From NCBI GenBank assembly GCA_963769935.1, contig CAVYNY010000028.1, forward strand, positions 1-64,000: DNA of 64,000 nt, given 5' to 3'. Of this stretch, positions 170 through 20,311 are shown one piece after another. The notes under the pieces are model-generated. The model was not told where the DNA came from. It did not search any database and was given only the letters and a program-made list of their open reading frames with translations. The position numbers were made by a program, and so were the translations under genes. The stretch comes from an uncultured delta proteobacterium (GTDB lineage: Bacteria > Desulfobacterota > Desulfobacteria > Desulfobacterales > JAFDCJ01). Each line of letters opens with the position of its first letter. Position 1 is the stretch's first letter.

Positions 170-922
170 ATGTTGATCATATCCCGGCTGAGTAACCTAT
201 TTTTGAAAGAATCACCGGATGTTGACAAAGATCCGATACTTCCCGTTGCCGCCCAAATCAAAGCCTGGCGAAAATCCATCCGGCAGATGAGCTGGCCTAT
301 CGGTGAGGATGAATTGGATAACTTGGCAGCATGGCCGCCGCCGGCATTGACGGATGAGGAGCGGAATCAGGGATTAGTGGGAACGGCAATATTTTACGGG
401 TTCGGCGTGAACGGTTCGGATCGCTCCGATGCAGTGCTCTCCGGCAAACTGGCCTGGGAATACGCCTGCCGAAGCAGAAAAGGAAAAACCTGGCAGTGTG
501 AGTACATTGATTTCAACAAATCGGATGATATCCGTCTGCGCCCCGATGCGCCCCCCCGGCCGAAAGGATTTTACTTTGCAAAAATTCAGCTTGGCGCACG
601 GTTTCAGAGGATGACCGTAAACCAGCTGCGCAGGACCTTGGGCGATGGCACGGGACTCGGGCCGGAAGGTTTTCAGCTGCTGGGGATCACCCACCCCCAT
701 CTTGCCGACTGGATGAATGAAAGAAAGACGCCCTTTATGGCCCTGGCCGACTATGACGTGGCGCCGCACGGTTTCAACGACTTCTTCGATGCGCCGCAAC
801 TGTTTTGCAGCAACCGGGTCCTGGGCCTGGGCATCGGCAACGTGGACCGCAATTATCCGCTTTTTGCAATTCCAACTTTGCGGCTGGATAGCGGTGGTAT
901 CGTCCGCAAGAAAGATTTTTAA
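170..922 (+). CDS. hypothetical protein (250 aa)
   Basis: Long ORF with an AAGGAG RBS downstream of a sigma-54 promoter; no family recognised. Confidence 0.7.
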   Translation: MLIISRLSNLFLKESPDVDKDPILPVAAQIKAWRKSIRQMSWPIGEDELDNLAAWPPPALTDEERNQGLVGTAIFYGFGVNGSDRSDAVLSGKLAWEYACRSRKGKTWQCEYIDFNKSDDIRLRPDAPPRPKGFYFAKIQLGARFQRMTVNQLRRTLGDGTGLGPEGFQLLGITHPHLADWMNERKTPFMALADYDVAPHGFNDFFDAPQLFCSNRVLGLGIGNVDRNYPLFAIPTLRLDSGGIVRKKDF

Positions 923-973
923 AATTTTTTAGTTTGACATCCATTTTTTGTTTTTATACACTACCAAATCAGT

Positions 974-1414
974 ATGAATCTGAAGATACCCATATCCAAC
1001 GTCTTCTTGCGGAAAGCATTTTGCATCACTTTCGTGCTGCTTTTCAGCCTCAATTTCTTTGCCGGTGCTGCTCTGGCCAAAAGTTGTGATGGTGGTTTTG
1101 GCTGTTTGAGCTGCGAGGAAGCAGTCCATCATCGTCATCTGCCGGCAATGGATAAGGGCACGGCGCCGCCCGGCTGCCAGCCGTTGGAACAAGAAGACGC
1201 GTGCAGCTTTGAAATCGGGCCGGATACGGATAATTTTCATGGCATTATTCCGACTGTCAGAACCGACCAAAATGAGATCGGCGGCAGTTTGGGTGCGATA
1301 GCTGCTGATGAAAGCCCCGCCTCAAGCGCCGGAAAGTTTTTACCGCAAACCCTTTATTCCGATACCCAACCTACCACACCGATTTATTTAATCATCCAAT
1401 CTCTGCTCTGCTGA
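974..1414 (+). CDS. exported Cys/His-rich small protein, possibly metal-binding
   Basis: Signal peptide ending ALA, then C-x5-CxxC, HHRH, further Cys, and a C-terminal PIYLIIQSLLC. Confidence 0.6.
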   Translation: MNLKIPISNVFLRKAFCITFVLLFSLNFFAGAALAKSCDGGFGCLSCEEAVHHRHLPAMDKGTAPPGCQPLEQEDACSFEIGPDTDNFHGIIPTVRTDQNEIGGSLGAIAADESPASSAGKFLPQTLYSDTQPTTPIYLIIQSLLC

Positions 1415-1765: not shown

Positions 1766-2137
1766 ATGATCATGACCAAACTAAGCAAATCATTGGCAAT
1801 GGTAATTGCAGTTTTAACCCTGGCGGCGGCAGCTAATTTTGTTGCCCTGGACATCGCGCAGGCATGCGGCTGGGGGCAGGGGCAGGCCGGCGGCGGGGAC
1901 TACGTGCCCCAGAGGCGTGATCAAGGCGGATTCCTGGCGAGCAAAGGAGACGTTTCTGAATCCCAGGCCCGGGATATCGTCACCAATTATGTTAAAAAGC
2001 TAAATCCCAACCTTGAAATCGGTGAAGTTAAGGATAACGGCGGCTTCTATGAAGTCCAAATTGTTGACCAGGGCCAACAAGTTGTCCAGCTGCTGGGCGT
2101 GGATAAGCGCTCCGGCCGGCTGATTCTGTTGAATTGA
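1766..2137 (+). CDS. exported PepSY-like domain protein
   Basis: Signal peptide and a PepSY-like pattern (SESQARDIV...FYEVQIV...VDKRSG); strong AAGGAGG RBS. Confidence 0.7.
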   Translation: MIMTKLSKSLAMVIAVLTLAAAANFVALDIAQACGWGQGQAGGGDYVPQRRDQGGFLASKGDVSESQARDIVTNYVKKLNPNLEIGEVKDNGGFYEVQIVDQGQQVVQLLGVDKRSGRLILLN

Positions 2138-2630: not shown

Positions 2631-2650
2631 AATTATTGTTGAGAAAGGTT

Positions 2651-4348
2651 ATGAATAAGATTGCAGAAAAGCGTTTAATACTAGGGATTATGGTCTGTGT
2701 GGTCTTTCTGGCCGCCGGCTATTTTGTGGCAACCGGCACCGCCGGGAGTGCGGCGGAAAACCGAAATGGAACGATGATTCAGGGGCGCGTGGCGTCCACC
2801 TATGGGCCGGTGGAGAATGCACGAGTAAGGATCGCCGGCGCAGAGACGTATACCCTGACCGACCGGGAAGGACGCTATACGATCATCTCCGCCTACCCGC
2901 CGGGCACCCAGCTGTTGGTGACGGCGGGCAAGGAGGGCTGGTTCAACAACGGCCAGGTCGCCGGCCGTTCCAACCGCATGCCGGATATTTTACTGAATCC
3001 GGTCTATCTGGATGACCGGCCCGATTACCGGTTTATTTCTCCGATAACATGTTCCCGCTGCCATGTGAAGCTGACCCGTTACTATGATCAATCCAAAATG
3101 GCCCACACCACCTCCAATCCGAAAGTGCTGGACATGTATTACGGAACCGATGCGCTGCTGCGCGGGGGCATCGGTCCCGGATATCGGCTGGATAATCCGC
3201 AAAGCGACGGCAACTGCACCGCCTGCCATGCCCCGTCGATAGCCGGTAGCGTTCCCTTGTCGCAAGATTTGAACAACGTGCTGCGCTCACCGCTGACCGA
3301 ATGGGACGGCATCAGCTGTGACTACTGCCACAAGGTTCGAAAAGTTGTTAAAGATAAATCAAAACCCAGCGGGCATGCGGCAGTTCTCGAAAGGCAATCA
3401 TCGGCCCGGGGAAACTCAATCCTCGAGTTCGGCCCCTACGATGACGTGGTGGTACCGCCGATGGCCGCATCCTATAATCCACTGTTTGACAAAGGCGAGT
3501 TTTGTTCGATCTGCCACAGTCATTCTAAAAAATTGGATAACAACAAAACCTGGGACCCCGGCAGCGTGTATTCCGATGCAGAATGGACCGGTTTTGGATT
3601 GGACGGCAACGCATATCTTCCCATTCAGACGACCTATCAGGAATGGGAGCAGTGGCAGAATCAACTCCCGGCCGATGATGCCGACAAAGGCAAGAAATGC
3701 CAGGACTGCCACATGAGCTGGCGCAAAGAAATGCTGCCCTACGATAACTATGTTGTCGACGGCCAGGCGCGCCAGATGTGGGGTACCTATCGATCACCGA
3801 CGAACATTCACCCCCATCAATTTGACGGCGGCACCGAAACCCAGCTAAAAACGGCCTTGTCCCTGGAGCTGGAAGGGAAAACCGCGGATAAGACTCTCAC
3901 CATCAATGTCTACATTACCAATACCAACGGCGGGCACTGGGTGCCCACCGGCGAGACCATGCGCAGCGTGATGCTGCTGCTCAAGGTCACCGATTCCAAC
4001 GGCAAGCCGCTGGAATTGAAAAAAGGCGGCCGGCTGCCCGACTGGGCCGGGATCGGCGAGGTTGAAAAAGGAAACTATGCCGGTCTGCCGGGCGCCGCTT
4101 TTGCCAGGGTGCTCGGCGATGATAAAGGGAATCTTCAGGTTCCCTTCTGGCAGGCCACGCAGGTTGTTTCCGATACCCGCATCCGGCCCAAGACGACGGT
4201 AACTCTCAAATTCGAGTATACCCTGCAAAATCCTGAAGATGAGCCGACGGCTGAAGCCCGTCTTATCTATCGGCCGGTGATCAGGCCCTGGGCGAAGATG
4301 AAAAACTGGCTTGCCGAAGATATATTAATTACCAGCCGTGTCTGGTAG
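2651..4348 (+). CDS. pentaheme cytochrome c with N-terminal carboxypeptidase-regulatory-like domain
   Basis: Signal/anchor; five CxxCH (CSRCH, CTACH, CDYCH, CSICH, CQDCH); GHWVPTG motif; start moved from TTG 2636 to ATG 2651 after GAGAAAGG. Confidence 0.9.
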   Translation: MNKIAEKRLILGIMVCVVFLAAGYFVATGTAGSAAENRNGTMIQGRVASTYGPVENARVRIAGAETYTLTDREGRYTIISAYPPGTQLLVTAGKEGWFNNGQVAGRSNRMPDILLNPVYLDDRPDYRFISPITCSRCHVKLTRYYDQSKMAHTTSNPKVLDMYYGTDALLRGGIGPGYRLDNPQSDGNCTACHAPSIAGSVPLSQDLNNVLRSPLTEWDGISCDYCHKVRKVVKDKSKPSGHAAVLERQSSARGNSILEFGPYDDVVVPPMAASYNPLFDKGEFCSICHSHSKKLDNNKTWDPGSVYSDAEWTGFGLDGNAYLPIQTTYQEWEQWQNQLPADDADKGKKCQDCHMSWRKEMLPYDNYVVDGQARQMWGTYRSPTNIHPHQFDGGTETQLKTALSLELEGKTADKTLTINVYITNTNGGHWVPTGETMRSVMLLLKVTDSNGKPLELKKGGRLPDWAGIGEVEKGNYAGLPGAAFARVLGDDKGNLQVPFWQATQVVSDTRIRPKTTVTLKFEYTLQNPEDEPTAEARLIYRPVIRPWAKMKNWLAEDILITSRVW

Positions 4349-4366: not shown

Positions 4367-5041
4367 TTGCGAACGTCAGCGACCGTTATTTTTTCACTTG
4401 TAGTATTTGTCCTGCTTGGTTTCATCACCTTGCCGCTAAATGCTTTTGCCGGCAAGATTAAAGGTACCGTTGAAGTGCAGGGTTTGCGCACCCCGGAAAA
4501 TGTTGTGGTGTATCTAACCAAAATGCCCCCGAAAGATGTCGATCTTTCCAAAGCCAGATTTGCCATGGATCAGCGCAATTTGGAATTTGTGCCGCACGTG
4601 CTGGTGGTTCCGGTAGGGGCATCGATCGTATTTCCCAACGACGACCAGGTGGCACATAATGTCTTCTCCATGTCCCGCGCCAAATCTTTTAACCTGGGAA
4701 GTTATAATCCGGGCGAGAGCCGAACGGTGGTCTTCGATAAGACGGGTATCGTCGAACTGCGGTGTGATGTTCATGCTGAAATGGCCGCCTATATTCTGGT
4801 AATGGAAAACCCCTATTTTGCGGTAACAGACAAAAACGGCCATTTTCAGATTCCGGATGAAAGTTATCTCAAACAGGCAGGACTGGAAGGTCCGGCAGAT
4901 CTTGCCCCTGGAAATTATACTGTTAAAACCTGGCACGAAAAACTTAAAACCGAGAAGATTTCCGTCGTTGTTCCTGAAAGTGGGGATGTGACCGTTGAAC
5001 TCAAACTCAAAAGAGGCACACCGGGAGCTTTGTATAAATGA
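4367..5041 (+). CDS. exported cupredoxin-domain protein (type-1 copper motif)
   Basis: Signal peptide ending AFA; HNVF...CDVHAEM; C-terminal beta-sandwich (PGNYTVKTWHE). Confidence 0.8.
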   Translation: MRTSATVIFSLVVFVLLGFITLPLNAFAGKIKGTVEVQGLRTPENVVVYLTKMPPKDVDLSKARFAMDQRNLEFVPHVLVVPVGASIVFPNDDQVAHNVFSMSRAKSFNLGSYNPGESRTVVFDKTGIVELRCDVHAEMAAYILVMENPYFAVTDKNGHFQIPDESYLKQAGLEGPADLAPGNYTVKTWHEKLKTEKISVVVPESGDVTVELKLKRGTPGALYK

Positions 5042-5189: not shown

Positions 5190-5927
5190 ATGCCTGATAT
5201 CTCTTTATACATGACGTTTGCGGCGGGATTGATTTCTTTTCTCTCCCCCTGCGTACTGCCGCTGGTGCCCGGCTACCTATCCTTTATTTCCGGCGTCTCG
5301 TTGGCCGAAATCAGAGAAAAAGAGGAGAGCCGGACTTTACTGAATAAAGACAAAGGCGCCATCCTGCTGAATTCGGCCTGTTTTGTCCTGGGATTTTCGA
5401 TCGTATTCATTGTATTGGGTGCTTCCGCCACGTGGCTCGGCGCTTTGCTTTCTTCCAGGATATCACTGCTTTCGAAAATAGCCGGCCTGGCGATTATATT
5501 TTTCGGAATTTACAAAATGGGGCTGATCCGCACGCGCTTTTTTTACAAAGAAGCGCGGTTTGATGTCAAAAACAGGAAATTCGGATATGCCGGGGCCCTG
5601 GTCATCGGCGCGGCGTTCGCCTTCGGCTGGACGCCCTGCATCGGCCCCATCCTGGCGGGGGTTCTGACTTACGCCGGTACCCTGGAAAAAGTAAACCAGG
5701 GAATTTTACTTCTTCTGGTTTATTCCCTGGGGCTGGGGCTGCCGTTTTTGCTGACGGCTGTAGCCATCAACCATTTCCTGCGATTTTTCGGCCGGATGAA
5801 AAAGTACTTGCGCTTGCTCGAAGTGACCAGCGGTGCCGTCATGGTCATCCTGGGTTTGCTTATTTTTACCAACAAACTAATTCTAATACCCGGTTATTTT
5901 ACTTTTTTAAATAAATTTGCCTTGTGA
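5190..5927 (+). CDS. ccdA: cytochrome c biogenesis protein CcdA
   Basis: SFLSPCVLPLVP and FGWTPCIGPIL motifs; about six TM helices. Confidence 0.92.
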   Translation: MPDISLYMTFAAGLISFLSPCVLPLVPGYLSFISGVSLAEIREKEESRTLLNKDKGAILLNSACFVLGFSIVFIVLGASATWLGALLSSRISLLSKIAGLAIIFFGIYKMGLIRTRFFYKEARFDVKNRKFGYAGALVIGAAFAFGWTPCIGPILAGVLTYAGTLEKVNQGILLLLVYSLGLGLPFLLTAVAINHFLRFFGRMKKYLRLLEVTSGAVMVILGLLIFTNKLILIPGYFTFLNKFAL

Positions 5928-5961: not shown

Positions 5962-6576
5962 ATGAAAAAACTTTTTACTATCCGAGCCGCATTATTTTCG
6001 GTGGTGTTTATTCTCCTTGGATTGGCGGTCATGCCTGTGTTTGATGCCGCTTTCGCGGCAGGTTCCGCTAGTCCGGAGTCGGCGCAATTATTTCGCGATA
6101 TGCTCATTATCCAAGTTCCTCAGGCCGGCGACCCGGTTGAGATCAGGCTTAATGATGCAGACGGCAGAGCGGTCAGCCTTTCCGATCTCAGAGGCAAAAT
6201 TGTCTTCCTCAACTTCTGGACCACCTGGTGCCCCACCTGTCGCATCGAAATGCCTTCCATGGAAAAATTGCATCAGAAGTTTAAGGACGGCGATTTTGCC
6301 ATGGTAACGATCAACCTGCAGGAGTCCGCTGCCCGGGTAAAAGAATTTTTCAAAGAATTTAAGCTGACGTTCACTGCGTTGCTGGATACCGGCGGACAGG
6401 CGGGGATCATGTTCGGCATCAACCAGATTCCCACCACGTATATACTGGATAAAAAAGGGCGCATCATCGGCAAGGCGCTGGGGCCCCGGGAGTGGGACAG
6501 CCAAAAATCTACGGCCCTGTTTGAGCACTTGACGAACCGGCAGGCAACAACTTCAACCGCCGACCCGCCGGATTGA
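5962..6576 (+). CDS. TlpA/ResA-family thiol-disulfide oxidoreductase
   Basis: N-terminal anchor; LNFWTTWCPTCRIEMP; IPTTYILD. Confidence 0.92.
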   Translation: MKKLFTIRAALFSVVFILLGLAVMPVFDAAFAAGSASPESAQLFRDMLIIQVPQAGDPVEIRLNDADGRAVSLSDLRGKIVFLNFWTTWCPTCRIEMPSMEKLHQKFKDGDFAMVTINLQESAARVKEFFKEFKLTFTALLDTGGQAGIMFGINQIPTTYILDKKGRIIGKALGPREWDSQKSTALFEHLTNRQATTSTADPPD

Positions 6577-6606: not shown

Positions 6607-8538
6607 GTGAATATGAAGAAAAGAAAATTCTGGTTTCTAATCGGCCTGGCTTTTTTGCCGGCGGTACTTATCCCCCTGGCAGTTCAACTCTTGCCGGCCG
6701 AAACAAAGACGCATACAATTTTACTGGAGGCCAAAAAATATGGCTATTCCCCGTCAAGGATCATTGTCAACCAGGGGGATACCATCCTTTTAAAGCCCGC
6801 TTCCCTTGACGTCACCCACGGATTTCTCCTGGACGGATATCCGGTGGAGTTTATTATGCGCAAAGGGGCGACCTTGCTCAAATATACCTGGAAAGACGAT
6901 GACGGCCATCTTAAAAGTGACTGGGACCGGGTTTCTGAAGTTGAATTCACCGCCGATAAGGCCGGCAAATTCACCTTCCGGTGTACGCAAACCTGCGGCA
7001 ACCTGCATCCCTTTATGACCGGGGAATTGATCGTAAAACCCAATACTCCCTACTACCTGTTCATTTCCCTGTCCATCTGGCTGGTGTTCAGCCTGCTGCT
7101 TTACGCGCGCTCGGATTCCGGCGACTGCTTCTCAGGCTTCAAGCGCGTCAACCTGCTGGAAAAAATCCCGGGTCTCAAAAGAATCCTCAAGCTGCGCAGT
7201 TTCCAGTTTCTGGTGATTCTGCCGAATTTCATCGTATTTTATCTGTTCATTCTCAGCAGTCTGTGGGGCAGTCCGGTGGGCAATCGCAACATCGCGATTA
7301 TCTTTGTCTGGATTTTGTGGTGGTTTGTTTTAAAAGCCATCATCGTGCCGTTGGGCGGCCGCTTATGGTGCATGGTCTGCCCGCTGCCGGCGCCGGCCGA
7401 ATGGCTCAGCCGCCGCAGCTTTACAGCCGTCCGCTACCTTCAGAAACCGTTTAAAAAATTGCACCATCGGTTTACGGGCCTGCAAAAGGACTGGCCGAAA
7501 CTGATGGACAATATCTGGCTGCAGAATTTCCTTTTCCTGACGCTGATTTCCTTCGGCATGATCCTGATCACCCGCCCGATTGCCACGGCATTGATGTTTC
7601 TGACAATCCTTTTCATTAGCCTGGTCCTGGCCCTGATTTACCGGCGCCGGGTCTTTTGCCAGTACCTGTGTCCGGTCGGCGGGTTTCTGGGCAGCTATTC
7701 CATGGCCTCGATGACGGAGATGCGCGCCGTCGATCGCAATATCTGCCGCCAACACAAGGAGAAGTCGTGCTTCAGCGGCGGGCCGAACGGCTGGGCCTGT
7801 CCCTGGAAGCAGTATATCGGCACGATGAACCGCAACAACTCCTGCGGCTTGTGTACCGAGTGCCTCAAGAGCTGCCCCAAGGATAATATCGGATTATTCC
7901 TGCGCCCTTTTGGATCGGACAGGACGCCCAGGGGTTATGATGAGATGTTCAATTTTATGATCATGCTCGTGGTCGCCATTGCGTTCAGTATTACCATGGG
8001 CGGACCATGGGGCATCATCAAGGATGCGGCCAACGTCACCGAAAGCAGGGCCATCGGTCCGTTCCTCATTTATATTGCATCCATCTGGGGCTCGGCACTG
8101 CTGCTGTTTCCGGGGCTGTTTGCGCTGGCGACGCTGGCCTCCAAGCGCCTGGCCGGCATTCAGCTGCCTCACCGCAGCCTGATGCTGCGCTTGTCCTATA
8201 TGCTGGTTCCGATCGGCATTTTTGCCTGGATCGCTTTCAGCCTGCCCATGCTCATGGTGAATTACAGCTACATCCTGGTGGTTTTGTCCGATCCCCTGGG
8301 CTTGGGCTGGAACCTGCTGGGCACGGCGAATTATTCATTCAGGCCATTTCTGCCGGAATGGATACCCGTGATCCAGGGGGTTATATTGCTGGCCGGCGTG
8401 TATTTCAGCTTCAGCCGCGGGTATCTGGCGATCAAAGATATACTTCCGGATTCGGGTGCGCGTTTAAAAGCTATGCTGGCCCCTGCCATTTTTCTTTTGG
8501 CGGTGGTCAATATTTTTTTAAGACTCTATATGGGATAA
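6607..8538 (+). CDS. fusion of a CuA cupredoxin domain and a NapH/NosH-like 4Fe-4S polytopic membrane protein
   Basis: DVTHGF...CTQTCGNLHPFM (CuA); WCMVCP, FCQYLCP, CGLCTECLKSCP; many TM helices. Confidence 0.85.
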   Translation: MNMKKRKFWFLIGLAFLPAVLIPLAVQLLPAETKTHTILLEAKKYGYSPSRIIVNQGDTILLKPASLDVTHGFLLDGYPVEFIMRKGATLLKYTWKDDDGHLKSDWDRVSEVEFTADKAGKFTFRCTQTCGNLHPFMTGELIVKPNTPYYLFISLSIWLVFSLLLYARSDSGDCFSGFKRVNLLEKIPGLKRILKLRSFQFLVILPNFIVFYLFILSSLWGSPVGNRNIAIIFVWILWWFVLKAIIVPLGGRLWCMVCPLPAPAEWLSRRSFTAVRYLQKPFKKLHHRFTGLQKDWPKLMDNIWLQNFLFLTLISFGMILITRPIATALMFLTILFISLVLALIYRRRVFCQYLCPVGGFLGSYSMASMTEMRAVDRNICRQHKEKSCFSGGPNGWACPWKQYIGTMNRNNSCGLCTECLKSCPKDNIGLFLRPFGSDRTPRGYDEMFNFMIMLVVAIAFSITMGGPWGIIKDAANVTESRAIGPFLIYIASIWGSALLLFPGLFALATLASKRLAGIQLPHRSLMLRLSYMLVPIGIFAWIAFSLPMLMVNYSYILVVLSDPLGLGWNLLGTANYSFRPFLPEWIPVIQGVILLAGVYFSFSRGYLAIKDILPDSGARLKAMLAPAIFLLAVVNIFLRLYMG

Positions 8539-13171: not shown

Positions 13172-14398
13172 ATGCCGGTATTTGAATACACAGCTTTGAA
13201 TGCCAAGGGAAAAACCACTTCCGGCATCATCGATGCGGAGGGTTCGGTGGCAGCCCGTCAGAAGCTTCGGGCATCGGGAATTTTTCCGATATCTATCAAA
13301 GAATCGTATGAAGCCGCCCCCAAAAAAGCGTCCAAAAGCTTTAACCTCTCACGCCGGTTCAGCCGGGTAAGACCGATCGAAGTTGCGATGATGACCCGTC
13401 AACTGGCAACACTGCTGGGTGCCGGTTTCCCGCTGGTTTCAGCGCTTGATGCCCTGGCACCCCAGACCAAGTCCCATGCTTTTAAGAAGATCCTGACCCA
13501 GATCAAAGACTCAATTGTGGAAGGCAACAGCTTCGCCCAGGCCCTTTCAAAATATCCGACAACCTTTTCCTCACTCTACGTCAACATGGTACGCGCCGGC
13601 GAAACGTCCGGCACCCTCGAAATCGTGTTGGATCGCCTGGCGGATATCACTGAAAAGCAGCAGGCCCTGATGACCCGGATTCAGACGGCTCTGGCATATC
13701 CGATGTTTATGCTGGTGTTCGGCACGATCGTATTGTTTATACTATTAGTTTACATCGTTCCCACCTTCACTTCAATTTTCGCCGATATGCACCAGACCCT
13801 TCCGACACCGACCCGGCTGCTGATCTTTTTGGGTGATTTTTTCAAATCCTACTGGTGGCTTATTTTCATTATCATCGGCCTGATAGGGTTCCTTTTGAAT
13901 CGAGCCAAAAAAACTGAAAAAGGTCGCTTCGTGTTCGATAAGATAGTGTTGGCGATACCGGTCACCGGCAATGCCGCCAAGAAACTGGCTGTTGCCCGTT
14001 TTGCCCGTACTCTGGGGTCACTGCTGGAAAACGGCGTATCCATGTTGGTAGCCCTTGATATCGTAAAAAATATTGCCGGCAATATCTTGATTTCAGAGGC
14101 CATCGAAACAGCGGCCATCGAGGTCGGCAAAGGCCAGGGACTGGGAGCAGCCATGTCCAGCAGAGACATTTTCCCTCAATTATCCATTCAGATGATCCAG
14201 GTGGGAGAACAAAGCGGTGAACTGGAAAAGATGCTCACCAAGATTGCCGACGTATTTGAAAACGAGGTGGAGACCAGCATCTTACGTCTCACATCATATT
14301 TGGAACCGGTCATGATTCTGGTGATGGGACTATGCGTGCTGTTTATTGTGCTATCGATTACCTTACCGATTTTCGAAATGAACCAGCTGGTTCGCTAA
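13172..14398 (+). CDS. gspF: type II secretion inner-membrane protein F
   Basis: TRQLATLLGAG, RAGETSG, VGEQSGEL, LEP; two T2SSF repeats. Confidence 0.95.
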   Translation: MPVFEYTALNAKGKTTSGIIDAEGSVAARQKLRASGIFPISIKESYEAAPKKASKSFNLSRRFSRVRPIEVAMMTRQLATLLGAGFPLVSALDALAPQTKSHAFKKILTQIKDSIVEGNSFAQALSKYPTTFSSLYVNMVRAGETSGTLEIVLDRLADITEKQQALMTRIQTALAYPMFMLVFGTIVLFILLVYIVPTFTSIFADMHQTLPTPTRLLIFLGDFFKSYWWLIFIIIGLIGFLLNRAKKTEKGRFVFDKIVLAIPVTGNAAKKLAVARFARTLGSLLENGVSMLVALDIVKNIAGNILISEAIETAAIEVGKGQGLGAAMSSRDIFPQLSIQMIQVGEQSGELEKMLTKIADVFENEVETSILRLTSYLEPVMILVMGLCVLFIVLSITLPIFEMNQLVR

Positions 14399-14400
14399 AG

Positions 14401-14590
14401 GAATTGAATATCGGCGATTGAATATTGAATATTTAGGGGATTCAGGCTTTAATAGCACCAGTGCTTGCTGTAAATTTACGGCGTCGCAACAGGGGCCGAT
14501 TTTTCACATTCCTCAAATCAAACTGGATTTTTGGAAATAACATGATAGAATTCCTTAAATACTTAATATTCAATTTTCAATTTTCAATTC
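14401..14590. repeat. ~190-bp element with ~43-bp imperfect terminal inverted repeats built of ATTGAAW units
   Basis: 14401-14443 pairs with 14548-14590; the same arm family recurs at 24375-24578. Confidence 0.7.
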
Positions 14591-14611
14591 ATTGAGGGAG
14601 GGACCGGATTC

Positions 14612-15061
14612 ATGTTGTCAAAATTAAAAATCGACAGCCGGGGTTTTACACTGATTGAATTAATGGTTGTCATTATTATACTGGGCATCCTCGCCATGTG
14701 GGTTGCCCCCAAAATTATGAGTCGGCCGGAGCAGGCCAGACAGGTTAAAGCCCAATTGGATATTCAAAACATTGAAACTGCCTTAAAATTGTATAAACTT
14801 GACAACGGCATGTATCCCAGCACCGAACAGGGTCTGCAGGCACTGGTTGAAAAACCTGAAACGGGGAACGTCCCCAAAAAATGGAAAGAAGGCGGCTATA
14901 TCGAAAAAGGCCGGGTTCCCAAGGACCCCTGGGGCAATGAGTTCGTTTACCTTTCGCCCGGTCTTCAGGGAGATTTTGACATTATTTCCTATGGAGCTGA
15001 CGGCGTGCCCGGTGGTGAGAACGAAAATAAGGATATCAATAACTGGGAAATTGACCAATGA
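14612..15061 (+). CDS. gspG: major pseudopilin
   Basis: [41 protein letters not shown]. Confidence 0.97.
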
Positions 15062-15305
15062 ATTGTCAGTTGATCGTTGTAAGTTGTAAGCTGGCTGCGA
15101 CGTGAAAATAGGTTCAGCCGAAAAGAGCCCGCCATGATCCGCCAAACAGGGAGATCGATTCTTTTCTGAAACCCAGTTCAGATTTGCCCCGTATGAAAGA
15201 ATTTTCAGTTCGGCACGGTGGCCGTTTTGGCAAGTGTAGAAAAAGTTGCAGGTAAAACGGCCAGCATATCTATCGATCCGCCTGCCCTTTTGGGGTTAAA
15301 CTATC

Positions 15306-15872
15306 ATGATATCTAAGGCAACGACAACGAACCCGGATCCTAACCATAGATCCGCCTCCGGCGGAACAACCCACTCCGGACAAGCCGCCGGCTTCACCCT
15401 GATCGAGCTGATCGTTGTCCTGGCGCTGATGGGCTTGATGCTCTTTTTTTCCCTGCCCCGGCTGCAAAATAATCCTTTCCTCGATGACAGCAAAAAAAGC
15501 TCCCGCTGGCTGATCGGCAAAATTCAATCGCTTAAGGAAAGCGCCATTCGGGATCAAAAAGTCTACATCTTGCATTTTGATCTGGATAGCGGACGGGTCT
15601 GGGAAACCAATGAATCGATGTCCCAGGAGGAAATTGAGAGCGCCGTTTTAAACAGTTATGCATTGCCCGACGATTTGCGAATCATCGATATCGAGTATCC
15701 GACCAAAGGTAAAATTTATTCCGGTCAGGCGGCAATAACCTTTTACAAGCCAGGGTATACCGATAAAGCGCTGGTTCATCTGCAGGAAGGCGATACGTAT
15801 CTGAGCTTTTTGATAGAGCCGTTTCTTCCCAATGTTCAATTTTTTGAAAAATATGCAGGTTTTGATGACTGA
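15306..15872 (+). CDS. gspH: minor pseudopilin H
   Basis: G|FTLIEL prepilin site; operon position. Confidence 0.8.
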   Translation: MISKATTTNPDPNHRSASGGTTHSGQAAGFTLIELIVVLALMGLMLFFSLPRLQNNPFLDDSKKSSRWLIGKIQSLKESAIRDQKVYILHFDLDSGRVWETNESMSQEEIESAVLNSYALPDDLRIIDIEYPTKGKIYSGQAAITFYKPGYTDKALVHLQEGDTYLSFLIEPFLPNVQFFEKYAGFDD

Positions 15873-16284
15873 AACCAGTATCCAGCATTCAGAATCCAGT
15901 ATCCGGAATCTAGCACCTGGTTTCACGCTGCTTGAGGTTCTGATCGCCATGGCCATTATGGCAATCGTCCTGGTCGGCGTGTACAGAATGCAATCCCAAA
16001 CCCTTACCATGACTGCCGCGTCCCGATTTTATACCGAGGCTCCCCTGCTGGCTCAAGACAAACTGTCACAGCTGGAGGCGAATCCGTCGGATTTAATTCC
16101 CGGAGATTCAGGCGACTTCGGTGAACAGTTTCCCGGCTACAGTTGGAAAGTCTCAACTGAGGGGGTGTCCTCGGAAATCTTGGGGGAAGCCGCCGGCGAC
16201 TTGAAAAGAGTCGATTTAACGGTCTCCCTTAACGGAAATGAATATGAATACAGTGTCCGGACATATCTGTTTGTGGGGGAATAG
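15865..16284 (+). CDS. gspI: minor pseudopilin I
   Basis: G|FTLLEVLIA; start set at ATG 15865 overlapping the gspH stop. Confidence 0.85.
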   Translation: MTETSIQHSESSIRNLAPGFTLLEVLIAMAIMAIVLVGVYRMQSQTLTMTAASRFYTEAPLLAQDKLSQLEANPSDLIPGDSGDFGEQFPGYSWKVSTEGVSSEILGEAAGDLKRVDLTVSLNGNEYEYSVRTYLFVGE

Positions 16285-16319
16285 AATTGAATGCGGAATG
16301 AGGAAGGCGGAAAAGGAGA

Positions 16320-16393
16320 AGGTGAGAGGGTGAGAAGAGGGTGAGAAGATCAGAAGATCAGAAGGTGAGAAGTTGGGAAGTTGGGAAGTTGGG
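16320..16393 (+). repeat. degenerate 8-mer tandem repeat (GGGAAGTT/GAGAAGGT)
   Basis: ggtgagaa...gttgggaagttgggaagttggg; related tract at 46012-46054. Confidence 0.75.
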
Positions 16394-16398
16394 AAAAT

Positions 16399-17184
16399 AT
16401 GATTAATCTGCTTAAAATATCGCGTACACGATGTGGGGCATCAAGTGTTAAGTATCCAGGATCCAGGATCCAGCACCCAGCATCCCGCACCCAGCATCCC
16501 GCACCCAGCATCCAGGATCCAGCATCCGGTTTCACTCTGATGGAAATTCTGCTGGCATTTTTGATTCTGGCAATCGTGATAACCGCCATCATGGGCTCCT
16601 TTAATGCGGTGTTTTCAACGACGGACACCCTGAAAAACAGCGGGCAATACTATGAAATGGCAAAAAATTGTCTGAACCGCATGACGGGCGACCTGGATGG
16701 ATTTTTCGTTACCCAGCCCCCGTTATACAAAAAACGAGGATTCGATGATCCGCCCGATCTCTATCGCATTGTGGGCGGCAACTCCGAAGTTAATGGCACA
16801 GGATTTGCAAACCTAAGATTTACAAGTAGTGCCCATATCCCTCTGGATAGCGTAAACAGAGCCGGCATTGCCGAAATTGTATATTATGTCCAGGCCAAAA
16901 ATGACGGTCAGCTGGTGCTGAAACGGGCGGACCATTTATATCCTTATCCGAAATTTGAAGAGAGCAGTGGAGATCCGGTGCTTTGTCAAGATGTCAAATC
17001 CTTGGCATTCAAGTATTACAATGCCGAGGGCGAGGCATCAGAGGTTTGGGATTCCGACTCAGAGGAAAATGGCTATGCAACTCCGACTGCCGTCGGAATT
17101 CAATTGGAAATCGGCACTGAATCCAAATCTTACACGTTTGAAACAACCGTACGATTGGCAGTTTACCGCAAAAAGTTGGAATGA
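16399..17184 (+). CDS. gspJ: minor pseudopilin J
   Basis: G|FTLMEILLA after a repeat-derived leader; operon position. Confidence 0.85.
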   Translation: MINLLKISRTRCGASSVKYPGSRIQHPASRTQHPAPSIQDPASGFTLMEILLAFLILAIVITAIMGSFNAVFSTTDTLKNSGQYYEMAKNCLNRMTGDLDGFFVTQPPLYKKRGFDDPPDLYRIVGGNSEVNGTGFANLRFTSSAHIPLDSVNRAGIAEIVYYVQAKNDGQLVLKRADHLYPYPKFEESSGDPVLCQDVKSLAFKYYNAEGEASEVWDSDSEENGYATPTAVGIQLEIGTESKSYTFETTVRLAVYRKKLE

Positions 17185-17196
17185 TTAGGCCCCGGG

Positions 17197-18270
17197 ATGT
17201 TGCTGAAAATAACTCAAAATAACCGCGGCATTGCGCTGCTGATCACAATCTCGGTGACCACAATTTTGATCGCCGCCGCATTGGAATATAACCGCCGTGC
17301 ACGTTTTGCAGTCGTTTCGGCCGCTGCAGCGCGGGATCGGGTGACGCTTTCGTATATGGCATCATCCGGCGTACATGCGGCCATGGCCTTGCTGGTAAAA
17401 GACAAATCAGAATCCAATATTGATACCTTGCAGGAGGACTGGGCCAATCCGGAGAAAATCGACGAATTGCTTGGGGCGATTCCATTTGACAATGGCAAGC
17501 TTTCAGTTACCATTACGGATGAACTGAGCAAAATTCAGGTCAATGCGCTGGTCAGCTTCCCGGACAGCCGCCAGTTCAACGAGGCCCAAATCATGCTGTG
17601 GGATCGATTCCTGAGGTATATCGGAAGTGAAGACGACCTTAAAGATGACAGCGACCCCGTGGCAATCGTAAACTCGGTAAAAGACTGGCTGGACAGTGGC
17701 GATGATGACGCGACCACCGGGCTGAGCGGGGCCGAAACCAGCTATTATGAGGGTCTGGAGCCGCCGTATAAGAGCCGCAATGGCCCGATTCTGGATCTAA
17801 ACGACCTTTTACTGATCAAAGGCATTACCCCCAAGCTTTTTAATGGCAGCGAGCAGACACCGGGAATGGCAGACTGCATGACCGTTTACGGGATGGATAA
17901 GGGCGCCGGCACCTCTTTTACCTGGCCGGGACGTATTAACATCAACACGGCCGATGTACCGGTAGTAGCCGCTCTGCTGGGACTGGAAAATAAGGAGATG
18001 GCCCAGGCTTTGAGTGAATTGCGCCAGGAAGTGACGGCCGACAAAGATAATCATGACTTTTCAAATCCACAGTGGTATAAAGAGATACCGGGCTTCGGTG
18101 ACGTCACCGTCAATGCGAACCTGATTACGACATCCAGCGATGTGTTTCGCGTGAAATCAGAAGCCGCCATCAATGAAACCAAAACGTCCGTGACCGCTGT
18201 CGTTCAACGAGTTCAAAGTCCCGAATCCCACAAATGGATATGTCAAGTTTTAAGTTGGAGTACGGAGTAA
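17197..18270 (+). CDS. gspK: minor pseudopilin K
   Basis: RG|IALLITI, DELSKIQVNAL, DWLDSGDD, RININTA. Confidence 0.92.
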   Translation: MLLKITQNNRGIALLITISVTTILIAAALEYNRRARFAVVSAAAARDRVTLSYMASSGVHAAMALLVKDKSESNIDTLQEDWANPEKIDELLGAIPFDNGKLSVTITDELSKIQVNALVSFPDSRQFNEAQIMLWDRFLRYIGSEDDLKDDSDPVAIVNSVKDWLDSGDDDATTGLSGAETSYYEGLEPPYKSRNGPILDLNDLLLIKGITPKLFNGSEQTPGMADCMTVYGMDKGAGTSFTWPGRININTADVPVVAALLGLENKEMAQALSELRQEVTADKDNHDFSNPQWYKEIPGFGDVTVNANLITTSSDVFRVKSEAAINETKTSVTAVVQRVQSPESHKWICQVLSWSTE

Positions 18271-18315
18271 CTTATAATTGAAGATTGAAGAAAGTCTCGG
18301 AATTTATATAACTAA

Positions 18316-19767
18316 ATGAGCAGAAAAGTACTTGGAATTGATATAAAAAAAGACTCCGTTTCCGCCGTGCTGGTGAAAACCAGCTTGCGTGAAAACCGGA
18401 TCGATGCCCATGCGTACATCCCCCTGCCGGATTCGGCTGAGAATGAAAGCAATTTCAAAACGGCCCTGCCTGCGCTTTGGAATGAGGTTGATCCCGCCGG
18501 CTGCGACTGTGTGGTCTCCATTTCCGCCGATCATTTCTCCTACCGGATTTTACAGGTTCCCTTCAAGGACGCCAAAAAAATCCGGATGGTTCTGCCGTTC
18601 GAGCTGGAGCCCACCGTCCCTTACCCGGTGGATGATCTGGTGCTTGATTTTGTCGATCTACAATCCGCCTGCCAAAGCGATCAAAGCGAGATCATTGCCG
18701 TCGCAATTCCAAGATCGGAACTTTCTCCGTACATCGAATCGCTGGCCGAATTTAAAATAGACCCCGAAATGATAACCATCAGTGGGTTGCCGGCAGCGAT
18801 GTGTCTGGCCAAACAGGGTGATCCGGGCGAAGACCAGCTGTTTTTGGAGATCAGCAATGGGTCCAGCAGCCTGTTTATCATCCGCAATGGCCAGCTGCAA
18901 CTGATCCGATCGTTTCCGAATCCGGCGGCCGCAGACAACCGGGCCGGGATACTGGGTGCCTTCGTCCGACGCACTCTGGCCGCCTATGATGAATTCTGCC
19001 AGACCGAGTTTCAGCCGCGGGATATGGTAGTAACCGGTGCCGGTTTGGATGGTGCCGCCTTCGAAAGCGATGTCTCCGGGGTTTTAAATTTACCGGTCAA
19101 ACGATTAAATTTCGCCGACCGGCTGAACCTCCCCATCAGCAGTGAAAATCTCAAACCCTGGAACCCGGCTCTGATGGACAATGCCCTGGCCCTGACGTTG
19201 ATGGAGATCGAAGGGATAAAAGGACTGAATTTTCATAAGGGTCAATTCGCCGCCAAAAAATTCATTCTGAAAAATAAGAAAGCTGTGATCAGAAGTGGGA
19301 TACTCGCGGCCGCAGTATTGGTATTGTTTCTTTTCGCTGCAATTTCAGAATATTACACGCTAAACCGACAGCTGGGCCGCGTCGACCAGCAAATAACCGC
19401 TATTTTCCAGGAAACGTTTCCGGAGGTAAAGCGGATTGTCGATCCGTATCAGCAAATGCAGGTGAAGCTGCAGGAAGTCAAAAAAAATGCCGTGGTACAA
19501 ACTGCGACGGCGCCTCACATCCGCAGTATCGATATTTTAGACAGTATCAGCAAAAGCATTCCGGAGAGCATTACGGTTGATATAACCCGGATGGTTATCG
19601 CGCCGGACACGGTGCTGATCTCGGGCAACACCGACACCTTCAAATCGGTGGATGATATTAAAAACAGGCTGGAGCAGATTGAATATTTCAAAAAAGTTAC
19701 CATCACCTCCTCCAATACCGACCGGTCCGGCAAAGAGATTCGTTTTCAGTTGAAAGTGGAGTTATAA
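18316..19767 (+). CDS. gspL: type II secretion protein L (PilM/PilN-like)
   Basis: VLGIDI actin-like N-terminus, one TM helix, PilN-like C-terminus. Confidence 0.85.
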   Translation: MSRKVLGIDIKKDSVSAVLVKTSLRENRIDAHAYIPLPDSAENESNFKTALPALWNEVDPAGCDCVVSISADHFSYRILQVPFKDAKKIRMVLPFELEPTVPYPVDDLVLDFVDLQSACQSDQSEIIAVAIPRSELSPYIESLAEFKIDPEMITISGLPAAMCLAKQGDPGEDQLFLEISNGSSSLFIIRNGQLQLIRSFPNPAAADNRAGILGAFVRRTLAAYDEFCQTEFQPRDMVVTGAGLDGAAFESDVSGVLNLPVKRLNFADRLNLPISSENLKPWNPALMDNALALTLMEIEGIKGLNFHKGQFAAKKFILKNKKAVIRSGILAAAVLVLFLFAAISEYYTLNRQLGRVDQQITAIFQETFPEVKRIVDPYQQMQVKLQEVKKNAVVQTATAPHIRSIDILDSISKSIPESITVDITRMVIAPDTVLISGNTDTFKSVDDIKNRLEQIEYFKKVTITSSNTDRSGKEIRFQLKVEL

Positions 19768-19768
19768 A

Positions 19769-20311
19769 ATGACGCTTCTGACAAAATTTAATAAACTCAA
19801 CAAGCGCGAGCGGTATGCAATCATGGCGGCCACCGGGGTCATCAGCATTTTTTTGATTGCCCAATTTATTATCGGACCTCTTTTAGGCCGCACGGAAAAA
19901 AAGAAAAACATGCTGCAGGCCAAAGCCGTTATGGTGGAGCAAATGCGGCAAATGCAAGCCGAATATGAGTCTTTGACGCAAAAAGCGAATATATCCGAGT
20001 CCCGTTTTCGCAATCGGCAAAAGGAATTTACCTTATTCTCGTTTCTGGATCGGTTGGCCGGAGAGGCCGGCATCAAAGACCGCATCAGCTACATGAAACC
20101 ATCTAAAAAGATTGATAAAAATAGTCCCTACAAAATTTCCAGCGTCGAAATGAAGCTTGAGGCAATCACCCTGGAACAATTGACAAATTATTTATATGGT
20201 GTTGAAACTTCCGAAAATATGGTGGACGTCGAAAAAATTTCGATTTCAAAAAAGGACGAAAAGGAAGGACTTCTTACAGCCATTCTGCAGGTGGAGACAA
20301 TTGAAATTTAG
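19769..20311 (+). CDS. gspM: type II secretion protein M
   Basis: LNKRER plus TM, coiled coil, LEQLTNYLY. Confidence 0.85.
   Translation: MTLLTKFNKLNKRERYAIMAATGVISIFLIAQFIIGPLLGRTEKKKNMLQAKAVMVEQMRQMQAEYESLTQKANISESRFRNRQKEFTLFSFLDRLAGEAGIKDRISYMKPSKKIDKNSPYKISSVEMKLEAITLEQLTNYLYGVETSENMVDVEKISISKKDEKEGLLTAILQVETIEI

Follow-up and report, generated by a model that had tools for sequence, protein, structure and literature searches.

A gene in the window (the whole 64,000-nucleotide stretch of DNA analysed here, from an uncultured delta proteobacterium) raises the question of what a CuA centre does on a NapH-like polyferredoxin membrane protein, and whether the two parts belong to one genuine polypeptide. 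CuA centres have so far been described almost exclusively in haem-copper oxidases and in nitrous oxide reductase.

The fused protein and its predicted topology

The gene can start at GTG, giving 643 residues, or at the ATG at 6613, giving 641, the commonest length among close relatives (Table 1). A transmembrane helix is followed by a CuA cupredoxin, a second helix, a four-helix NapH-like module, a two-cluster ferredoxin and five further helices; the helix count combines an AlphaFold2 model (138 sequences; pLDDT 95, pTM 0.94) with hydropathy, and the helix limits were set by hand from the model. Pfam returned Fer4_5 above its cut-off and a weak cupredoxin match, and NCBIfam weakly matched NapH as well as the CuA ends of NosZ and CoxB. 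In shuffled versions of the protein, CxxxCxxxHxxM and CxxCxxCxxxCP arose in 0 of 20000 cases each. A first-pass annotation, made from the sequence, had read the gene as one chain comprising a CuA domain and a polyferredoxin membrane protein, and that reading holds: there is one open reading frame, all five copper ligands are present, and the 120 best of 912 matches span 97-100% of the query, which marks the fusion as a family and not an accident and rules out a chance fusion or an assembly artefact. The fusion is real and conserved.

Table 1. Features of the fusion gene and its operon, in window coordinates
Feature	Position	Strand	Basis, occurrence or remark
Small exported protein, no Pfam match	1766..2137	+	32/34 pentahaem-type loci; likely first operon gene
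Second CuA protein, 157 aa, one N-terminal helix	2157..2630	+	Motif in 56/56 family ORFs; constant partner
Pentahaem c cytochrome	2636..4348	+	Five CxxCH in 41/41; relative of T. tepidum c552 (5ZE8)
Type 1-like cupredoxin (HN...CxxHxxM) with carboxypeptidase-regulatory-like domain	4367..5041	+	34/34 pentahaem-type loci
CcdA/DsbD-type membrane thiol reductase	5190..5927	+	21/34 pentahaem-type loci
TlpA/ResA thioredoxin	5962..6576	+	26/34 pentahaem-type loci
CuA::NapH-like polyferredoxin fusion gene	6607..8538	+	Single intact ORF; 643 aa, 11 predicted membrane helices
TM1, residues 8-28, after KKRK	6628..6690	+	Signal anchor or signal peptide; sequence, model
Periplasmic cupredoxin (predicted), residues 32-145; CuA ligands H71, C126, C130, H134, M137	6700..7041	+	Sequence, alignment, fold match
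TM2, residues 149-168, joins CuA to membrane core	7051..7110	+	Model, charge bias
Four-helix NapH/NosR-like module, TM3-6	7201..7674	+	Domain match, alignment, model
Cytoplasmic two-cluster ferredoxin (predicted)	7744..7878	+	Alignment; GltD-like insert site in relatives
C-terminal extension, five membrane helices, conserved D-P-x-G-x-G-W loop	7945..8529	+	Alignment, model

Lysine and arginine close to the membrane average 25.3 on the inside versus 7.3 on the outside across 51 aligned rows, a positive-inside bias that predicts an outer location for the CuA domain and an inner one for the ferredoxin and the two Cys-Pro motifs, in keeping with the periplasmic placement of CuA first proposed. By ligand set and subunit II-type fold the cupredoxin is of the CuA type, and it would bind a mixed-valence binuclear copper centre. 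Its ligands align with those of ba3 subunit II, with Q128 at the carbonyl position; its best fold match is an oxidase subunit II of the ba3 type, with which Foldseek agrees (7deg_E, Z 13.6, rmsd 1.5 over 93 residues; 1ehk_B, Z 13.2, rmsd 1.9 over 94), and model pLDDT exceeds 90 across the domain. The ligands are also conserved in homologues: every one of 51 close rows has C126, C130, H134 and M137, and H71 is kept in at least 90%, while among diverse relatives covering the domain all five are kept in 83 of 100 rows, the other 17 mostly replacing Met by Glu. Fold and ligands are those of ba3-type oxidase subunit II and NosZ, whereas the setting differs, since here CuA sits on an Fe-S membrane protein in a locus that has neither subunit I nor a CuZ propeller. 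A branch with the Met-to-Glu change (L145, L149, L152, L160, L164 and L165; P0143, P0147 and P0158) repeatedly adjoins FG-GAP repeat and TPR genes.

The membrane core, with 4+5 helices within residues 199-641 by model and charge bias, carries two cytoplasmic Cys-Pro motifs in its four-helix module, along with an invariant W238 and nearly invariant N228 and W235. Both motifs had initially been taken as CxxxCP; this is right for the second (C351-C355-P), whereas the first is CxxCP (C255-C258-P). We infer that the ferredoxin ligand sets are C380/H383/C388/C423 and C413/C416/C419/C398. The irregular motif noticed at the outset (C380-x2-H383-x4-C388-x9-C398-P) is a family trait, with position 383 being His in 91, Cys in 45 and another residue in 2 of 138 rows, so that a damaged motif is ruled out and one cluster would be held by three Cys and one His, or be of the 3Fe-4S type. 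The membrane part shows no conserved His, which leaves no sign of haem b and speaks against a haem b wire. Profile searches yielded no solved relative of the membrane core, and matches to the cupredoxin domain crowded the fold searches, which barely probed the core; in viral contigs, no relative was found.

Relation to known proteins and modules

With NapH, NosH and MauN (TIGR02163) the fusion has in common the four-helix module, a pair of Cys-Pro motifs and, C-terminally, a cytoplasmic ferredoxin (a weak match, E 9e-7), but its score of 28.7 bits lies below the cut-off of 213.05, and it opens with CX2CP where those proteins have two CX3CP motifs, and has 11 helices, five of them extra. Its ferredoxin, cytoplasmic by charge bias, pairs one canonical with one irregular cluster (His or Cys at 383), whereas theirs has two canonical 4Fe-4S clusters, and CuA stands in place of the NapG partner, with no napG-like gene among the operon's Pfam and NCBIfam matches. 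The available text of PMC5449189 places the NapH clusters in the cytoplasm and records a NapH-NapG fusion. NosR, to which the layout had been likened, remains a fair analogy: NosR, NapH and RdhC share a four-helix CX3CP module, to whose motifs the available part of the source assigns no function, and NosR, NirI and RdhC, like the fusion, are single chains that place a redox domain on the outside, between the first helices (PMC5928378). That outer domain carries covalent FMN, whereas the fusion has CuA, no FMN-binding match and additional C-terminal helices, and its operon contains neither nosZ nor a reductive dehalogenase. By the membership criteria of those families, the fusion is neither NapH nor NosR.

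The same parts occur as three adjacent genes in Methanoperedens (MPEBLZ_02039-02041; HCO II, NapH-like, HCO II), a genomic proposal and not a characterised complex in the available sections of PMC4683180. There the nar operon runs NarG-H-J-Orf7-HCO II (1 TM)-NapH (9 TM)-HCO II (1 TM), all highly transcribed; the NapH-like protein has five extra C-terminal helices, nine in total, and no NapG, and a complex with NarGH was proposed by Arshad et al. in 2015 (PMC4683180). The arrangement is restated without biochemistry in PMC5690323 and in the available text of PMC13079737. The likeness extends to the 4+5 core, to a pair of subunit II-like proteins (here the fused CuA and the product of the gene at 2157-2630, the latter found in 48 of 49 loci) and to the presumed role as membrane partner of a periplasmic redox enzyme (PMC4683180, available sections). 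The two differ in that one CuA is here fused to the membrane protein, with a pentahaem cytochrome and a cupredoxin as partners, and in that the archaeal module is linked to narGH whereas narG was not found in the present host genome. We therefore regard the protein as likely a fused form of the Methanoperedens module, by likeness of architecture and not of alignment; no Methanoperedens-named protein is among the matches listed for the fusion.

The claim that the architecture is new among characterised proteins needs narrowing. Its parts are those of the three Methanoperedens genes (PMC4683180, available sections), whereas a literature search that left subscription journals largely outside its reach yielded no paper on the fused form and no biochemical work on the module. 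What was known before is the split module, noted in print without characterisation; what is added here is the fused variant, together with GltD-like NAD(P)H inserts in distant relatives.

Operons, host genome and direction of electron flow

The fusion gene is the last of a same-strand run with gaps of 5-148 bases, preceded in order by genes for a small exported protein, the 157-residue CuA protein, the pentahaem cytochrome, the type 1-like cupredoxin, CcdA and TlpA. Contigs from sediment RNA libraries of two studies span the operon at 90-99% identity, which by itself does not show transcription. Upstream lie two unannotated genes (250 and 146 aa; window 170-1414) that have no Pfam match; counting the present locus, they turn up close to the operon in 13 and 6 loci.

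Neighbours were compared in the best 79 of 209 genome matches, nearly all titled Desulfobacterota or delta-proteobacteria, and counted in the 49 loci with at least 5 kb of upstream sequence. A second CuA gene precedes the fusion in 48 of these 49, and the partner cytochrome is the pentahaem set in 34 and an octahaem protein with a trihaem protein and a cytochrome b in 13, from which the CuA pair and the membrane protein emerge as a constant unit whose cytochrome is swapped. The second operon type (L044:3115-8586 and 12 similar loci) reads octahaem (OcwA-like), trihaem, cytochrome b561, CuA, fusion; the best solved relative of its octahaem protein is 6i5b (E 5.5e-26), which we take to be OcwA. 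Directly beside the operon, two loci carry paralogues of the membrane core with another, non-cupredoxin periplasmic domain (L032:7112-8953 and L075:2128-4137).

The pentahaem protein is likely a periplasmic acceptor or enzyme. It matches 5ZE8 by profile (E 4e-13) and, on a poor model (pLDDT 61), by Foldseek (6.8e-12), and the family of this T. tepidum c552 takes in cable-bacteria pentahaems and Geobacter ExtKL/MccSep (PMC11976967; 10.1101/2025.11.18.688581; available portions of both). Outside the five CxxCH motifs only three His are conserved (H157, H394, H434), along with Met, Lys and Tyr. As many as two of the haems may therefore have no second His ligand, and one of the haems could be catalytic.

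The host genome is 96.7% complete, contains dsrA and encodes four haem-copper subunit I proteins, which, by their neighbours, look like caa3, bo3, cbb3 and qNOR. Two A-type oxidase clusters flank a complex I cluster (C35:32458-58786) and cbb3-type genes lie on C26, which suggests that this dsrA-bearing organism truly respires oxygen. NarG, NapA, NrfA, NirK and NosZ were not found in this genome, and among these no nitrate, nitrite or N2O reductase thus emerged as partner in the host. The fusion occurs in 10 of 19 genomes of the host genus; across the phylum 30 of 301 genomes have some match, and in only four, host included, does this extend to the N-terminal domain. Genes for subunit I of qNOR length are present in 8 of the 10 genus genomes with the fusion versus 1 of the 9 without it, a hint only, as these are kindred and incomplete genomes.

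We think it rather probable that the fusion is the membrane end of an outward electron-supply module for periplasmic redox proteins. This reading is favoured by the ligands, fold and topology, by the constant second CuA gene and by the neighbouring c-type cytochrome, and its direction by the reductases that adjoin relatives and by redox potentials, CuA lying at about +0.24 V. Electrons would enter from the quinol pool, a cytoplasmic reductant or both via the two Fe-S clusters, and would pass from the fused CuA to the second CuA protein and on to the pentahaem cytochrome or the type 1 cupredoxin, ending at a high-potential acceptor, in the host most plausibly O2 or NO via haem-copper enzymes, or the pentahaem protein's own substrate. 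CcdA and TlpA would hold the CuA and haem-attachment cysteines reduced during assembly. With no haem b ligands, transfer from Fe-S to CuA through a bound quinone or the conserved Trp and Cys residues can only be guessed at. A quinol source is drawn from analogy with NapH, and the original description of the protein as quinol-dehydrogenase-like survives as that analogy, set against a score of 28.7 versus 213 bits to the NapH model and the NAD(P)H-reductase inserts in relatives, which also point to a cytoplasmic source (NAD(P)H or ferredoxin). Such a source would also fit the octahaem loci, which already carry a cytochrome b that could serve quinol.

Several observations weaken outward supply: there is no conserved membrane His and no evident cofactor across about 30 A, the nearly complete host genome yielded no known terminal reductase partner, the CuA ligands are altered in some diverse relatives, and the T. 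tepidum relative, which in the available part of its description is low-potential and unclear in function, would fit poorly downstream of CuA (PMC11976967). A low-potential pentahaem protein could instead oxidise a periplasmic substrate, for example a sulfur species, and pass electrons inward via the CuA sites to the quinone pool or the cytoplasm, as the ties of its relatives to sulfur metabolism (PMC11976967; 10.1101/2025.11.18.688581; available portions) and a host that has dsrA and no detected nitrate or N2O reductase would allow. We consider such inward flow distinctly improbable: the family alignment shows no conserved Cys beyond the haem motifs, unlike the Sec-bearing MccSep, the neighbours elsewhere are reductases, and the step from CuA to menaquinone or a 4Fe-4S cluster would be uphill.

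Distant relatives and the reach of the module

A profile-free search returned 2902 clusters at E 0.001, and relatives are named from Acidobacteriota, Planctomycetota, Armatimonadota, Chloroflexota, Hydrothermarchaeales and Nitrososphaerales, among others. Split forms are spread over many phyla, one of them adjoining nosZ. Of 63 distant metagenome loci, 47 have a CuA-type motif joined to the core or next to it, and in 17 it flanks the core on both sides, 15 of the 17 also showing a haem c motif; the CuA-type motif is absent in 16, several of them on stretches that end early; these CuA counts are motif-based and imperfect in GC-rich DNA. In one locus (L118:736-7053) the core and a CuA gene lie immediately upstream of a clade II-type nosZ and nosD. 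Another (L114:2-11567) has two MauG-type peroxidases, a Rieske protein and an AioA-like molybdoenzyme, followed by a cytochrome c-CuA protein, rubrerythrin, the membrane core and a cupredoxin-SCO1 protein, a gene set that to us resembles the iodate reductase cluster idrABP1P2; in a third (L129) a qNOR gene adjoins the distant member. Neighbours of these kinds, clade II-type nosZ/nosD, a Rieske/molybdopterin enzyme and qNOR, favour outward supply.

Domain scans of 36 relatives, picked for length or odd N-termini, revealed a GltD-like Fer4_20 + Pyr_redox_2 unit in six (P0128, P0134, P0142, P0159, P0170 and P0180), which in the three proteins covered in full splits the irregular ferredoxin motif after its first Cys. 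An NAD(P)H oxidoreductase inserted in the ferredoxin points to a cytoplasmic electron source. One of these proteins, P0142, joins thioredoxin, CuA, membrane core and reductase in a chain of 1248 residues and is a strong candidate, by its domains, for a one-protein conduit from NAD(P)H to the periplasm. Thioredoxin precedes CuA in two of the 36, and in others a NosL, cytochrome c, c554, YHS, HMBD or YtkA domain replaces it. In a midpoint-rooted FastTree tree of 100 cores, from which fragments and rows without the motifs were excluded, five insert-bearing proteins sit in four separate subclades and fused and split forms interleave, which suggests but does not show a repeated origin.

Copper genes recur around the module, which weakens outward supply in favour of a role in copper handling. 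CcoG/RdxA/FixG and FtrD are membrane polyferredoxins that work with copper proteins, CcoG having a CxxxCP/Fe-S layout, and we know of no CuA domain in either. The fusion might, on this model, reduce Cu(II) at its cytoplasmic Cys motifs, as CcoG would, or keep periplasmic copper sites reduced in the manner of NosR, for assembly of the operon's copper proteins. Copper or metal-island genes lie close by in 26 of the 79 loci, genes for P1B ATPase, HMA, SCO1, YtkA and PCYCGC proteins adjoin distant members, relatives bear NosL, YHS, HMBD, YtkA or thioredoxin domains, and CcdA and TlpA belong to the operon. We nonetheless judge a copper-handling or maturation factor rather unlikely. CuA is an electron-transfer site and not a chaperone site; c-type cytochromes are the module's constant companions, whereas CcdA is missing from 13 and TlpA from 8 of the 34 pentahaem loci, and both from nearly all octahaem loci. 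Furthermore, no CcoG/FixG family match was found for the fusion at E 0.01, and, unlike those systems, its operon has no iron permease or cbb3 genes, the host's cbb3-type genes being on another contig. CcoG itself is a cupric reductase (PMC8456105), and FtrD is named in PMC11966278, each as given in the available text.

In other proteins this membrane module is joined to cNMP-binding and sigma-54 AAA domains (L044 and cyanobacterial plasmid matches), which raises the prospect of a redox or copper sensor that reports the state of periplasmic CuA to the cytoplasm and carries no respiratory current. For the fusion this seems very improbable, given that it has no output domain, that the NAD(P)H oxidoreductase units inserted in relatives imply catalysis, and that its gene sits inside operons of electron carriers. 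Returning to outward supply, a far bolder version is conceivable, though we hold it tentatively and rate it on balance doubtful: a widespread transmembrane oxidoreductase family, with a His-ligated Fe-S entry and no haem b, that would wire cytoplasmic NAD(P)H or ferredoxin to periplasmic CuA as a plug-in supply for nitrate, N2O, NO and multihaem reductases across bacteria and archaea, and that in relatives of sulfate reducers would power a new pentahaem/copper reductase.

A CuA site on a NapH-like membrane protein provides, in a single chain, a coloured and EPR-visible outer reporter, which makes testable both the role of the cytoplasmic clusters and Cys-Pro motifs in proteins of the NapH/NosH/NosR type and the path of electrons across the membrane. 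For the membrane partner of the Methanoperedens nitrate reductase, itself unstudied, the fusion may provide a tractable substitute in bacteria, and it draws attention to a putative high-potential chain that has been overlooked in the abundant, uncultured Desulfobacterota of sediments. Among look-alike clusters in the Atlas, Methanobacteriota is the commonest known phylum, which we offer only as a lead towards a sequence link with the Methanoperedens genes. Elsewhere in the window, at 13172-20311, lies an ordinary-looking type II secretion gene run, whose products we take to be GspF-, G-, H-, I-, J-, K-, L- and M-like.
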